A DNA stretch of 63,568 bases, the filler included, from Vannella sp. (taxonomy: Eukaryota), in NCBI GenBank assembly GCA_023345925.1. It is 6 parts of 6 records of this genome, joined end to end, with 100 filler letters (N's around TTAATTAATTAA, not from the genome) between each part and the next. Parts side by side here need not be neighbours in the genome. Positions count along the whole stretch, not along the records: positions 7,501 to 27,611 come from JAJQQN010000603.1; 5 more parts are not named here. One strand, given 5' to 3'. The notes beneath the pieces are model-generated. The model saw nothing but the letters and a program-made list of their open reading frames with translations, was not told where the DNA came from and did not search any database. This document shows positions 13,387 to 23,561 of the stretch, in pieces. A program made the position numbers and the translations under genes. Position 1 is the first letter of the stretch. Each line of letters begins with the position of its first letter.

Positions 13387-15924
13387 ATGAGGGGTTTGGG
13401 GGTTGGTTGGAGGGGTTTGGAACCTTTCAGAGGAGCTGGGAGCGGGAAGAGTGGAAGAAGAATGGTGTTTGGTGCAGCTAGGGAGGAGGAGGATGTTGTG
13501 GGGCTGTTTCAGACTCTCCGGAATGATCTCCAGCTGTCTGGTGATGGGCCCGAGGAGTGGAGGAGTGTGAAGAGGGCAGCTGTGGCGCAATATCCTTCTG
13601 GAAGGCACCTCTTACAACTCTATAATGGATCTTTACTTCTTGCACTCTCCAGTGCTGCTCCACATCACTTCTGGTACGGAACAATCCGTGCAGAGAGGGG
13701 GCATTGGGACCAGTTGGACCACCAAAGGCAGTTCATGGAGGTACAGATATCTTCTCCCATCTTCTAGCTCTATACTGATCTCTCTGAGTAGTCATTCGCA
13801 CGCCATCAAGGCATTCTAACCGAGAACGACTGGACGAAAGTTCAATACCGTGATATATGCGCTTGTGGCGGCAAGAAACTGCTCCAACGCCACAACAGTT
13901 TGATAGAGGCTCTTCAAGTGATCTATCCAGACAAGAAATGGGACTCTCTTGAGTCTCATTTCCGCCCCAAAGGATATTGGGAAGATCTCAATCACCAAAA
14001 GAGGGCTCTGGAGGTCATTGGGAGGGCTTTAGGAGTGACAAATATTACAGATTGGAAGCTTATAACGGCCAATCAAGTGAGGAGCCAGCCGATGGGGAGC
14101 TATCTGCTTCATTTGAACGGAGGAATCTTCTCAATGCTCCAGAATCTTTTCCCTGAGGTCTCTTGGGATGTACACCAGGACCGTAAACGAGTCCCACGAA
14201 ACTATTGGAAGGACACCAGGCATCATCGATTGTTCATGGAGTCTTTGAGGAAGAAACTGGGTCTCGTCTCAATAGAGGAGTGGCATAATGTCAATTGGGC
14301 GACTCTGAAGAGACACAAAGCTCAACAGCTTCTATCTTGCTACCCTACTTATCTCAGCCTTTTGCAAACTGTCTATCCTGAGCAAGTATGGGACGTTCAT
14401 CGGCTTCCGCAGGTCCCAAAAAGCTTTTGGAAGAGCCCCGAGAATCATCGGTCCTTCCTGGATGCTGTCGGCCCCCGTTTGGGAGTAGAGACTTTAGATG
14501 ATTGGAATCAAGTCACTCATCGAGAGTTGGCAGCAGAAGGAGGCACTTCCGCCCTTAACTTTTACGGTAGTATGATGAACATGCTTCAGACAGTTTATCC
14601 TGAACACCCTTGGTGTATTCATGATCGAAAGAACCTCCCTCGTGGGTATTGGCACGACAAAGCGAATCACAGGACCTTCTTAGACCAACTTCGAATCAAA
14701 TTGGGCATCGAAGACCCTTCGATGTGGCGCCAAGTCAGTGTAGCAGACGTCTATAGGAATGGGGGCTCCTCTTTACTTGCCCTTTACCCGTCATTCTTCG
14801 ATGCGTTAGCTGAGAACTATCCAGAAGATGACTGGTCTGTGCTTCAAGTCCGGCGTTGCGTGCCACACAAACACTTCAAATCACTTGCGAACTGCACGCG
14901 GTTCCTTACAGATCTTCAGCGCCAGGAAGGGCTGACCAGCATCGAAGATTTGATTCGTTTTCCTCTCTGGCGTGTCAGGCAAAGCGGGGGAAGCGCTTTG
15001 TTGAGTCAGTATGGCCATGATTGGTTGGAAGTTCTTCGCGATTCCTTCCCAGAGATAGTCTGGAATGAAAAGGATCTTCATTCAACTGGGCAGCCAGAAT
15101 GGGATGACTTGGCGTTCCAAAAACAGTTCCTGGATGACACTGGCGAGCAGCTTGGAGTACGAAAATGGACCGATTGGTCTCTCATACGGTACAATCAAAT
15201 TGTCCAGCTGGGGGGACAAGGGCTGCTCTCTCGCTATCCCTCCTTCTTGGCTGCTTTGGAGACAATTTATCCCGAACATCCGTGGGGGATCTCTTCTCGC
15301 CCATTCGCACCAAGAAACTACTGGTCTATGCACGAAAACGTGATGGCATTCGTAGAAGAAGCCAAAGCACGTTTCAAGATTCAAGAAAAGGCGGACTGGT
15401 ATCGAGTCTCACTGAAACAGCTTTCAGAGATTCGCGGGGGAGCTGCTCTTGTTCGAAAGTATCGCACTCTCTATCAACTCATTTGTTTTATCTACCCAGA
15501 TGAAGAATGGGACGCTCACGAGTTCTCGAAAAGAGACAAACGGGCAGCGCAGCGTTGGTTATTCCTGCAACTGAAAGAGCTTTATCCAGGCGAAGAGATC
15601 ATTGAAGACTTCTTTCACGGTGTACTCAGCTCCCAAGCAAGCTTTCCTATTCAATTGGACATCTATCTACCCTCCCGGCCACTCGCTTTCGAGTACAATG
15701 GAGCACATCATTACAAAGACCTTCCTGCGTTTGGCCATCTTGATATGCAGCAGACCCGAGATCGAGAGAAGCTTGCTCTATGTCAAGAACATCAATTACC
15801 CCTTGTAGTCATCCCACATTGGTGGGATGGCCAACTTTCGAGTCTCACAGAAGCCATTCTCGCACAAACAGGCACAGAACCTCCTCAGCCAGCCCACCAA
15901 GCAATCCAAAATGAAAAGGAATGA
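13387..15924 (+). CDS. Tandem ~74-aa repeat protein (9 units) with C-terminal PD-(D/E)XK Vsr/DUF559/RAP-like nuclease domain; ~828 aa, intron 13741-13791
   Basis: Exon 1 (13387-13740) splices in frame via GTACAG..TAG to 13792-15924. Repeat consensus F(L/M)D.L...LG.....DW..V....+...GG..LL..Y.S....L...YPE..W.......P+.YW....NHR.F; C-terminal QLDIYLPSRPLAFEYNGAHHY...RDREK..C......LVVIPHWWD. Confidence 0.85.
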
Positions 15925-15946: not shown

Positions 15947-17236
15947 CTATTCGTCTCCTTTGGACTTTTTCAATTCTGGCTGATCTCGCGGCTCTTCCGG
16001 CTCCACTTCGGACCGTCGTCGCTTGCGGGACCCAGAAGTACCTGACCCGAACACACCCATGTCTCTCACAGGTATGTTCGCTAAGGCTTCGGCCGCCAAG
16101 ATAGGTTCAGGTTGAGTATTGAACAGTTCAGCAAGAGCTGCTTTCACTTCGACTGCCTCCGCCAGATCAGCGCCGCTCAACTGCTGCTGTATCTCAACGG
16201 CCTTAACGTCCAGATCGTTTAAAGTGGCTTTGAGCTGCGCCTGTAAGCCAGCTGAGACTTGGTCGCCGGCCAGAATCTTTGTGATGATCAAGCGGGCCCT
16301 TTCCAGTTGTGCCAGAGCTTCGTTGGGCTTCCCGTTAAGGTGGTACGCTACTCCCAGGTAGAAGTTAGTCTCGGCAAGGGCGCGGTCGGTCGAAGGAAGG
16401 AGATCTTCTCGAATCGCCAAGCACCCTTCCAAGTCGACGACAGCGGAAGGGACGTTATCTGTCTCCAATCCTAATTGTCCCAGCGTGCAGAGGGTTTCGG
16501 CGTAGAGGAAAGCTACATTCGGGCGCAACGCGTCTTCGCGTTCCATGCTTTCCAATGTTTTGGAAAAGATAACGCGCGCTACATCCAACCATTCCCATGC
16601 CAACTCGAAGGTCTCTGATGAGTCCATTTCAGGCTGATTGCCTTCGCCATCAGCATCATCGCCGTCCTCTTGTTTCTCTTCTTCCTCCTCTTTGCCTTCG
16701 TCTCCTTCCATGGCTTTCTCGTTGCCCTCATCCTCGTCATTGCCTTCTCCCTCGATTGGTTCCTCGGCATCTCCTCCTTCCTCGCTGGCCTTCTCGTTGC
16801 CTTTTTCTTCAACAGTGGCGTGGTCGTTGGGTGCGTTTTCGATTGTTTCGTTCACTTCGTCTTTGCCCTGATCCACTACAGAAGTGACCTTGGTCTCAAT
16901 AGACTGGAAAGGTGTCGTCAGGATGGAAGAAACGGTCTGGGAGAACGAAGGGGGATTCGCTTGGTCTCCCTCTGGATCTTCGGATTGTCCGTCTCTGATG
17001 GAGAAGAGGAGCTGATCAGCTTCATCACGTGCTGTTTCCATGAGAGCCTTTCCATACCAGAGATAGGCCTCTCCACAGGCAAAGCCAAGGTCTCCAAACT
17101 GAGACACTCTGAGTTGCACAGCCTCTTCGAAGGCATTCGTCGCTTCCTGGATCTCCCCTTGAGCAAACAGCTCTCTCCCTTTGGCCAACAGATCAGCACC
17201 GATCAAGTCAGGCACTTGCGCACTGACGGGGTCCAT
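15947..17236 (-). CDS. NASP: NASP/Sim3/Hif1-type histone chaperone (SHNi-TPR)
   Basis: GEAYLWYGKALME, a long acidic insertion, FELAWEWLDVARVIF, DRALAETNFYLGVA, basic C-terminal NLS. Confidence 0.85.
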   Translation of the reverse strand: MDPVSAQVPDLIGADLLAKGRELFAQGEIQEATNAFEEAVQLRVSQFGDLGFACGEAYLWYGKALMETARDEADQLLFSIRDGQSEDPEGDQANPPSFSQTVSSILTTPFQSIETKVTSVVDQGKDEVNETIENAPNDHATVEEKGNEKASEEGGDAEEPIEGEGNDEDEGNEKAMEGDEGKEEEEEKQEDGDDADGEGNQPEMDSSETFELAWEWLDVARVIFSKTLESMEREDALRPNVAFLYAETLCTLGQLGLETDNVPSAVVDLEGCLAIREDLLPSTDRALAETNFYLGVAYHLNGKPNEALAQLERARLIITKILAGDQVSAGLQAQLKATLNDLDVKAVEIQQQLSGADLAEAVEVKAALAELFNTQPEPILAAEALANIPVRDMGVFGSGTSGSRKRRRSEVEPEEPRDQPELKKSKGDE

Positions 17237-17737
17237 GAATCAACCGAAATGACTTGCAACGGCAAAGGATCTCTGTTTGTCCCCGTTTCCCGCCAAAAAT
17301 CATCAAACTGGTTTGACCTATCAATCGACTGTAACTGAGTAACACTGCATTCTAGAGAAAGAGTAGATGCGGCTCAAGACTGAAAGCTGAAAGGTGGTCT
17401 GAAGGGAAGAAGGAGATATCTGGGAGTCACTTGAGCTGCTACTAAAGCTCCTCTCTTGGTGACAACGAGACGACTGAAGCCTGAGAGAGTGACCTGGAAG
17501 GTCTGCAGCCGATCCAGGTGGACTGGGATGAAACACTCCCTCGTTCTGGATGAGGACATCCTCATTCATTGGACCTCAGTAAACAGAAGAGTGCGCAGCT
17601 TCCTTTGATGCACTCCCGTATTATCTTCAGAGCCCCTTATCTACTCTTGTAAAGGGGATTAGCTACTCTACTGGAGAAAGGAAGGAAGGACGCTCCCAAA
17701 CAAACGAGGGAAAGCGCCGTTTTCATTGCACCCTTAT

Positions 17738-22472: not shown

Positions 22473-22523
22473 TGCCTTCACAATAGACTTCCTTCCCCCA
22501 GCCGAGCCTATTTTTAGGGACCC

Positions 22524-23561
22524 ATGGACCTTGCAGAGGCACTGGCACATGAAGGCAGTGAGGAGGAAGTGGAGGAAGAGGAGGAAGAGGAGGAAGAGGA
22601 GCCTAGCATTAACAGCATGGACGATCTTATTAGACTTATGGTGCGGTACGCTCCTCCTCTGCCGACAGTAGATGAAGAGCTCTTTGATTGTAACTTCACC
22701 CGGCAAGAGCTGGTGAATCGGTATGGCCCCTTCTTCTTCTGTGAGAGGGAACTCGTGTACCTCTACAGGGGCTATCCTCTCCTTAAATCTCTCCGTGCAC
22801 TGGAGGACCCCAAGTTACTTGCTATTCAGCGCCAGATTGCGCTGCAGGGCGGCGAGCAGTTCTGTTCTACGTACGAGATCAACGCCAGTGTGATTGACAA
22901 AGTGTGTCAAAGTGGATGCTTCCCCTTGGGCCATGTCTCAGTAGGAGTGGAGAACCTTCTCATTAAGCTTCACCAGGAGCGATGCGTGATGAACCCCATC
23001 TCTGAGCGCCTCCATATCTCTCGATCTGTTCGAAAGATGGCCAAACGGTACATGCTCACGGTGAACTCAGCGTATGAAGAGTGCGTTCAGCAGATAGTGG
23101 AGTACCACAAGCACTCTTGGTTGCACCCACAGATCCGAGCCTCTTTTGCCGCTCTCCAGGAGGAGGGAAGCTCGTTCCGGACTAAGGTTCACTCGTTTGA
23201 GCTCTGGAACATCCAAAACCTTGATCCGGTACCAGATAGCGTAGAGGACCTCAAGAGTAGAGCTAAGATGGTTGCAGGAGAGATAGGCTACGCCTTAGGA
23301 GCTACCTATTCAAGCCTCTCTGGGTTCCACACGGAGAACCACTCCGGATCCGTCCAACTTGTCGCCACCGGCAAGCTCCTCCAACACATGGGCTTCACCG
23401 TCTGGGACTTTGGCATGAGCATGGAATACAAACTCCAGCTCGGAGCCACTCTCGTTCCCCGAGACGAATGGCTTCTCCTCTTCCACCAAACCAAGGATCT
23501 CTCCACTCATGGCCCCTTCCCTTCACAGCCCTTCCAAGTGCAACACCTTCTAAATCCTTAA
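22524..23561 (+). CDS. Leucyl/phenylalanyl-tRNA-protein transferase (Aat)-like aminoacyl transferase
   Basis: GCFP, LHISRSVRK, TVNSAYEECV..I...H..SWL, HSFELW, VAGEIGY.LG..YSSLSGF, SGSVQL, WDFG...YK..LGA..VPR. Confidence 0.85.
   Translation: MDLAEALAHEGSEEEVEEEEEEEEEEPSINSMDDLIRLMVRYAPPLPTVDEELFDCNFTRQELVNRYGPFFFCERELVYLYRGYPLLKSLRALEDPKLLAIQRQIALQGGEQFCSTYEINASVIDKVCQSGCFPLGHVSVGVENLLIKLHQERCVMNPISERLHISRSVRKMAKRYMLTVNSAYEECVQQIVEYHKHSWLHPQIRASFAALQEEGSSFRTKVHSFELWNIQNLDPVPDSVEDLKSRAKMVAGEIGYALGATYSSLSGFHTENHSGSVQLVATGKLLQHMGFTVWDFGMSMEYKLQLGATLVPRDEWLLLFHQTKDLSTHGPFPSQPFQVQHLLNP

Follow-up and report, generated by a model that had tools for sequence, protein, structure and literature searches.

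TALE/TALEN and PPR-SMR proteins consist of tandem helical units, variable in number, followed by a nuclease, and their units are 34-35 residues long. To our knowledge, few repeat scaffolds aim enzymes at nucleic acid: TALE, PPR, OPR/HPR, PUF and zinc fingers.

A Vsr-type domain behind repeats occurs in two described groups. In the EDxHD enzyme I-Bth0305I, two N-terminal NUMOD2 motifs precede a C-terminal Vsr-like domain. The footprint of this enzyme is about 60 bp, with specificity mainly in the central 14 bp; specificity is concentrated where the enzyme cuts, with little contribution from positions farther away (PMC3239194). The RAP proteins (FASTK/FASTKD1-5, OPR-RAP and HPR-RAP) combine variable helical repeats with a C-terminal restriction-endonuclease-like domain (PMC8190603), and a Vsr-like fold behind helical repeats serves in organellar RNA metabolism (PMC8190603, PMC11879112 and PMC12242768). 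The FASTKD4 cavity is reported to resemble those of Vsr and I-Bth0305I, yet FASTKD4 is not a nuclease and has Asn in place of the Vsr His (PMC11879112). The essential residue of FASTKD5 is D429 (PMC12242768). Vsr and DUF559/NGO0050 are stand-alone domains without a repeat array.

We analyzed a gene of Vannella sp. within a window of 63,568 nucleotides, comprising six joined parts of the assembly with filler. The layout of its product, repeats plus a Vsr-type domain, is already known from the EDxHD and RAP proteins. The protein lacks some defining features of each of these groups, and its unit comes from an uncharacterised group. Consistent with the sequence-only reading, which had suggested a possibly uncharacterised family, no description of the family was found in the literature covered, with supplementary tables and most subscription journals lying outside that coverage.

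Gene model and genomic setting

The gene lies on the plus strand and encodes 828 residues after the inferred splicing of a 51-nt GT-AG intron. Its features are as follows.

13387..15924, +: gene, 828 codons after splicing
13387..13740, +: exon 1 (aa 1-118), with the leader, degenerate unit 1 and the start of unit 2
13387..13476, +: candidate mitochondrial presequence (aa 1-30; 5 Arg, 1 Lys, 1 acidic residue), inferred from composition
13741..13791, +: predicted spliceosomal intron (51 nt), GT..ACTGAT..AG, holding in-frame stops and bridged by DNA
13792..15924, +: exon 2 (aa 119-828 plus stop), with units 2-9 and the nuclease domain
13498..13719, +: unit 1 (aa 38-111), degenerate, 21 bits
13720..13989, +: unit 2 (aa 112-184), interrupted by the intron
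13993..15333, +: block of units 3-8 (aa 186-632), each with five short helices in the model; the six units are listed below
13993-14214, +: unit 3
14218-14439, +: unit 4
14440-14661, +: unit 5
14662-14883, +: unit 6
14890-15111, +: unit 7
15112-15333, +: unit 8
15337..15528, +: unit 9 (aa 634-697), adjoining the nuclease domain
15529..15861, +: Vsr/EDxHD/RAP-like PD-(D/E)XK domain (aa 698-808), from model and sequence
15550, +: codon of Q705, roughly at the position of the first Glu of EDxHD enzymes
15658, 15691, 15709, 15760 and 15769, +: first positions of the putative catalytic codons D741, E752, H758, D775 and K778, respectively

Reading from the ATG at 13387 runs into an in-frame stop unless the intron is removed; the spliced frame terminates at 15924. 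Intron 13741-13791 is the shortest among the enumerated GT-AG pairs that restore the frame, and its branch-point-like ACTGAT resembles the ACTAAT in the intron of the neighbouring SNF2 gene. The inferred splicing yields the 51-nt intron and the product of about 828 residues put forward by the sequence-only reading. No indels appear in the DNA contigs (four runs, three studies) that cover most of the gene, and one contig spans the predicted intron (13565-13993) with no differences; the two best runs belong to one study, which is possibly the source of the window sequence. These contigs ruled out an assembly artefact.

The window is compact eukaryotic DNA in which Pfam matches were returned for 11 of 12 scanned neighbouring ORFs, including SNF2, TOG, BEACH, kinase and RNase HII. 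The gene is flanked by an MFS transporter gene upstream and an SHNi-TPR (NASP-like) gene downstream, an ordinary eukaryotic nuclear context. Its GC3 is 0.50, versus 0.54-0.57 for five neighbours. No terminal or flanking repeats were found around the gene, and no second copy within the window; nor does the locus lie within or next to any mobile intron or intein, or among phage genes. A recent tandem duplication at the DNA level was rejected.

The repeat unit and its relatives

The array comprises nine tandem units with anchor spacings of 73, 75, 75, 74, 74, 76, 74 and 75 residues. In leave-one-out HMM scoring, each unit reached 21-76 bits, whereas 200 shuffled versions of each unit stayed at or below 9. 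The lowest score is that of the degenerate unit 1 (21 bits), and units 7 and 9 are weaker as well (29 and 31 bits). Pairwise identity between units ranges from 11 to 39%, with a mean of 26%. Across 1,239 units of the family, the scaffold is conserved: the three Trp residues at 89, 82 and 65%, GG at 80 and 85%, LL at 69 and 71%, and YP at 74 and 92%. Both the nine units of about 74 residues on a conserved scaffold and a unit length unlike that of TALE, PPR, OPR or PUF had been claimed from sequence alone, and both held. Specifically, the unit measures 74 residues versus 34-35 in TALE/TALEN and PPR-SMR, and the units of the query are only 26% alike. RAP repeats differ as well, being hairpins of 34-40 residues rather than 74-75 residues with five short helices.

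In the AlphaFold model of exon 2 (pLDDT 92.4, pTM 0.60), a unit consists of one long helix, four short helices and a Trp-anchored linker; the relative arrangement of the units is uncertain because the pTM is low. The array of the query is almost neutral, at +0.33 charges per unit versus a family median of +3.1. Pfam searches of both exons at E ≤0.5 returned no family, and no NUMOD motif was detected at this threshold in the N-terminal region, which is wholly occupied by the 74-residue array. Exon 2 had no match in NCBIfam or PADLOC, and neither the query nor the unit had a meaningful hit in sequence searches of the PDB. The unit is a confidently modelled scaffold that differs from those known and has no match among solved sequences. 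The match lists from Foldseek and VIA-align were filled by the nuclease domain and do not cover the fold of the unit.

A link to bacterial DUF4046 had been suspected from the sequence, and profile comparisons bore it out. A tblastn search with one relative, P0148, returned 144 plasmid records, 136 of them from Bacillus and many annotated as DUF4046. The family HMM scored 34 and 32 bits on two Bacillus DUF4046 proteins (shuffled maximum, 9.5), and hhalign aligned the unit profile with DUF4046 (PF13255) over 43 columns with a probability of 97.8 and an E value of 7e-13. The language-model atlas gives the same lead. Judged by these profiles, the unit is a distant relative of DUF4046, the relationship being confined to its second half. 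The Bacillus plasmid proteins share this half and a period of 75 residues. By contrast, the first helix of the unit does not align, the two Bacillus examples contain near-identical repeats only and no nuclease, and the DUF4046 Pfam model did not match the query and matched 2 of 66 relatives below the cut-off. DUF4046 is itself uncharacterised and gains a first functional context here. A second atlas lead, HNH_repeat (PF18780), had a value of 0.84; one truncated member of that family scored nothing against the unit profiles.

The order of the units is inherited: between the query and its closest relative, P0013, matched units are 41% identical versus 27% for unmatched ones. The median inter-unit identity in the family is 35%, versus 26% in the query. 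A recognition code was sought as conservation of variable columns between matched units in 11 independent related pairs. Of the 75 columns of the unit, 43 are variable, and excess conservation is distributed across them, with a mean of 0.24 (sd 0.12). The excess was highest at columns 49 (hydrophobic), 64, 69, 46, 33, 31 and 27, the polar candidates clustering loosely at 27-33 and 64-69. No dominant polar two-position pair of the TALE/PPR type was detected among the 43 columns, the power of 11 pairs being low.

The sequence-only reading had each repeat reading a few nucleotides, a proposal that these data do not support so far. A modular code is possible but unsupported: no two-position signature was detected, and the closest characterised relative, I-Bth0305I, is specific mainly at the centre of its footprint, around the cut site. 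It is rather unlikely that the DUF4046-related unit of 75 residues is a modular reader of nucleic acid, in which residues of helix 3 and the linker would provide recognition and 3-25 units would aim the Vsr-type nuclease. If this were so, thousands of variants from protists, prokaryotes and giant viruses would constitute a natural TALEN-like library, and could include specificity factors for unexplained mitochondrial RNA processing or editing in protists such as Heterolobosea sp. BB2. Modular recognition would also make the unit a new scaffold for engineering.

The nuclease domain

The C-terminal domain begins with a helix and a strand at about residue 698, some 40 residues upstream of QLDIYLP. 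The nuclease motif noted from the sequence is present, but it does not directly follow the array because the domain starts before it. The AlphaFold model of the last unit and the domain has a pLDDT of 94.8 and a pTM of 0.83. Using VIA-align against 48,161 solved chains, the best matches were I-Bth0305I (3r3p; Z 10.4, rmsd 2.8, 93 residues aligned), a Toxoplasma mitoribosome chain (Z 10.3, rmsd 2.8, 95 aligned) and Vsr (1cw0; Z 10.1, rmsd 3.0, 101 aligned). These three are tied, and the result was repeated with a longer model. NGO0050 (3hrl) reached Z 9.3 and human FASTKD4 Z 9.0 (rmsd 3.8, 98 aligned); chains of the mitoribosome and ATP synthase also have this fold. Foldseek against the PDB gave probabilities of 0.96-0.97 and no match at E ≤0.001; against viral models, it returned DUF559, homing-endonuclease and Vsr-like proteins. 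The PHROG sequence matches are phage homing or intron-encoded nucleases (E values of 1.6e-9, 1.8e-6 and 1.1e-4). In line with the initial assignment, the domain models as a member of the Vsr/DUF559/EDxHD/RAP branch of PD-(D/E)XK, with predicted nuclease activity.

The motif residues D741, E752, N754, G755, H758, D775 and K778 are all present. Their spacing fits D51, H69 and D97 of Vsr, with the extra acidic residue described for I-Bth0305I at the position of Vsr F62 (PMC3239194), a correspondence drawn from motif spacing and aligned ranges rather than residue-level superposition. Across 155 domain rows, D741, E752, H758, D775 and K778 are each 96-97% conserved (D741, H758 and D775, 97% each). 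All five are intact in 164 of the 173 unit-bearing rows; the nine exceptions comprise five truncated or intron-broken rows, two with conservative changes and two apparently dead. The metagenome loci were picked by a pattern covering E752, G755 and H758, so conservation at these positions is circular for those loci and the 155-row count is the cleaner one. At the helix-1 position, Glu in EDxHD enzymes, the residue is apparently Gln in 166 of 173 rows, Q705 being mapped to E170 of I-Bth0305I from aligned ranges alone. The conserved E723 (136 of 173 rows) could substitute for this Glu.

The protein resembles the EDxHD enzymes in placing repeated modules before a Vsr-like domain and in having equivalents of the D, H and D residues plus an extra acidic residue (PMC3239194). 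It differs in having nine DUF4046-related units instead of two NUMOD2 motifs, in the apparent Gln for the first Glu, in lying outside any intron or intein, and in its origin from a eukaryotic nuclear gene that has a spliceosomal intron and encodes a presequence-like leader. With the RAP proteins it shares a leader, a variable helical array, a C-terminal Vsr-like domain (Z 9.0-10.3 to FASTKD4 and mitoribosomal chains) and lineage-specific expansion. Unlike them, its family keeps the Vsr His, and prokaryotic members share the full architecture. The Pfam RAP model (PF08373) did not match the query and matched 1 of 66 relatives weakly (E 0.03, different nuclease subtype).

The RAP precedent also raises the question of a non-cutting adaptor, whose array would bind RNA or protein and whose nuclease-like domain would only bind, as in FASTKD4 and the mitoribosomal RAP proteins. 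The inactive Vsr-like cavity of FASTKD4 (PMC11879112), the mitoribosome and ATP-synthase chains of the same fold, the near-neutral array of the query and the nuclease-less DUF4046 proteins are in keeping with such a role. Nevertheless, the five putative catalytic residues are retained in nearly all rows, including the His that is Asn in FASTKD4, and only P0049 and P0055 are plainly dead full-length rows. An adaptor is very unlikely.

Distribution, location and substrate

The family contains 6,830 clusters at 50% identity (E ≤0.001), or 1,172 at 1e-30. The 159 fetched proteins vary in repeat number, with 3-25 units, and 151 of them combine array and nuclease, a proportion biased upward because the proteins were ranked by similarity to a nuclease-containing query. 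With the same bias, these thousands of clusters nearly always end in an intact-looking nuclease. The family is expanded in some protists and sporadic in prokaryotes. Organism names were obtained for 7 of 30 proteins looked up, all transcriptome-derived: the amoebozoan Cavostelium apophysatum accounts for six, all paralogues, and Heterolobosea sp. BB2 for the seventh. BB2 has unexplained mitochondrial insertional editing (PMC5421314); no link between this editing and the family was found beyond co-occurrence.

On metagenome contigs, intronless members with array and nuclease have UvrC, a Schlafen helicase plus HNH, or a resolvase as neighbours; one such member is in a bacterial MAG. From intron absence and tree position, L015, L017, L020 and L024 are inferred to be prokaryotic. 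The tree has 113 columns and mostly open forks, and no direction of transfer was drawn from it. Within one phylum, the family was found in 1 of 208 genomes, this being the seed genome, and atlas clusters mix eukaryotes and Nucleocytoviricota. Units are lacking in 55 of 228 nuclease-domain rows, some of which are fragments. The nuclease is joined to treble-clef zinc fingers, CapR, DUF723 or TerB_N in 8 of 30 proteins scanned, and DUF4379 or CapR occurs in 6 of 30 scanned contig proteins. Searches of viral contigs and phages matched only the nuclease of one divergent member, or nothing, and PADLOC matched none of eight proteins.

The sporadic occurrence in prokaryotes, the gene neighbours, the mixed clusters and the fusions to other modules would suit a selfish or defence nuclease acting outside mitochondria: a free-standing homing- or restriction-type gene, acquired from prokaryotes or giant viruses and amplified, that acts on nuclear or invading DNA. 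We consider this unlikely given the enrichment of presequence-like leaders, the spliceosomal intron, the GC3 relative to the neighbours, the absence of terminal repeats, the lack of PADLOC matches, and the old, degenerate units, which P0013 has in matching order.

Basic, acid-poor leaders were found in 63 of 99 relatives, versus 12.7% of 3,160 internal windows; this test used composition only, on proteins with a leader of 25 residues or more. None of six prokaryote-type members has such a leader. The leader of the query passes the composition test but is Gly-rich and atypical. An R-x-F-S cleavage motif occurs in 21 of 99 leaders versus 3.5% in the control; it is given little weight because it also matched in two of six prokaryote-type proteins. 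Based on leader composition across the family, the query protein is likely imported into mitochondria. Such import, like the prokaryotic members and the subfamily fused to a DNA ligase, had not figured in the sequence-only reading.

Our leading, though tentative, reading is that a homing-type nuclease of prokaryotic or viral origin was domesticated as a target-specific mitochondrial endonuclease, probably acting on RNA and convergent with FASTK/OPR-RAP proteins. The ancestral nuclease would already have had the array-plus-nuclease layout; in protists, a presequence would have been gained and paralogues expanded lineage by lineage. The array may grip one particular long stretch of nucleic acid, more probably a transcript than DNA, and so fix the position of the nuclease. 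Recognition would be distributed over numerous residues in helix 3 and the inter-unit linker instead of following a two-residue code. Cleavage would be metal- and His-dependent, as in Vsr, and different paralogues would bind different long mitochondrial targets, each cut at a set position. RNA is favoured by analogy: other helical repeats are joined to this fold in proteins of organellar RNA metabolism, and the expansion of paralogues with variable repeat number mirrors the PPR, OPR and HPR families. An RNA substrate would arise by convergence with the FASTK/OPR/HPR-RAP proteins, the same fold being joined to a different helical repeat. These proteins suggest that a Vsr-type nuclease was recruited to the mitochondria of protists a second time, independently of RAP/FASTK and in parallel with it. 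In amoebae, they are candidates for roles in genome maintenance or in the processing of mitochondrial transcripts.

Several observations run counter to this domestication reading. The array-plus-nuclease architecture occurs in prokaryotic contexts too, and the query has an atypical leader, a near-neutral array and an apparent Gln for the helix-1 Glu. As a precedent, the RAP group includes FASTKD4, which is not a nuclease, and FASTKD5, whose essential residue is D429. For RNA in particular, the query lacks a Pfam RAP match and its nearest sequence families are phage homing and intron-encoded endonucleases.

Evidence on the substrate from within the family (the ligase fusion, homing-endonuclease kinship and prokaryotic members) favours DNA. 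A mitochondrion-targeted DNA endonuclease or nickase would wrap its array around a long duplex, like the NUMOD repeats of EDxHD enzymes, and nick or cut with the Vsr-type domain, perhaps as a dimer. Its roles would lie in the repair or recombination of mtDNA or in eliminating foreign DNA, with ligase-fused members cutting and resealing, or clamping nicks. The top structural match is a DNA homing endonuclease tied with Vsr, the PHROG matches are homing or intron-encoded nucleases, and prokaryote-type members have the same layout. We regard this as a close rival, somewhat less likely than the RNA reading. The tied Z scores do not tell relatives that act on DNA from those that act on RNA, a mitochondrion with many active DNA cutters (Cavostelium has at least six paralogues) would presumably bear a cost, and the query has no ligase.

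The ligase fusions themselves consist of a full ATP-dependent DNA-ligase-like domain behind the nuclease in 5 of the 159 proteins, and a truncated one in three more. The domain matches Pfam at E 1.1e-8 and minimal bacterial DNA ligases at E 2e-23. The adenylation lysine motif is kept in one of the five full domains (P0081), which argues against the DNA reading. Seven ligase-fusion rows form one side of a branch among protist rows (support 63), and several ligase-fused members have presequence-like leaders.

Exchange and rearrangement of modules

In two relatives of the repeat gene's product, P0010 and P0133, the repeat array was as in the rest of the family, but the nuclease belonged to a different Vsr-like subtype. 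This joining of the array to another subtype shows nuclease swapping behind the array. The nuclease domain of these two proteins has matches in phage and viral contigs. The family's own nuclease subtype also occurred without the 74-aa units at seven loci (L036, L045, L055, L060, L063, L064, and L071), where it follows treble-clef zinc-finger repeats (DUF4379), CapR, DUF723, or TerB_N instead. Further relatives contained two nuclease domains each (P0098 and P0128), additional units C-terminal to the nuclease (P0018 and P0160), or an array of 25 units (P0012; 2,124 aa). In the related pair P0049 and P0055, the catalytic Asp, Glu, and His were all substituted; the two are predicted to be natural dead-nuclease members.

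Ligase-fused subfamily

One subfamily combines the repeat array and the Vsr-type nuclease with a minimal ATP-dependent DNA-ligase-like domain, located as follows:
P0081, aa 694-960
P0147, aa 596-862
P0006, aa 599-860
P0054, aa 602-866
P0035, aa 798-1050
P0151, P0036, and P0064, stub only
As judged from sequence, this subfamily is a natural nuclease-ligase fusion. Presequence-like leaders precede several of these proteins, and the adenylation lysine motif was retained in P0081 only.

Prokaryote-type and plasmid relatives

Intronless, leaderless members were found in prokaryotic or prokaryote-like contexts (loci L015, L016, L017, L020, L021, L024, L025, L080, and L086), and are the simplest candidates for biochemistry. 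Their neighbours include UvrC, a Schlafen group 3 helicase with HNH, a resolvase, and a methyltransferase-AlbA. The L016 member has an additional N-terminal region that appears HTH-like by eye and had no match in Pfam.

L004:5941-7833, DUF4046 protein without nuclease (630 aa), Bacillus thuringiensis plasmid pMC95
This protein contains several near-identical 75-aa units, a similarity indicative of recent tandem amplification. Crystal-protein genes and transposases surround the gene.

Other genes in the window

15947-17239, minus strand, NASP-like SHNi-TPR histone-chaperone gene
22518-23561, plus strand, match to Pfam PF03588 at E 2e-19 (leucyl/phenylalanyl-tRNA-protein transferase domain)
The NASP-like gene is convergent with the repeat gene and ends 22 nt from its stop codon; the genome is very compact. 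The transferase domain sits in a eukaryotic window.
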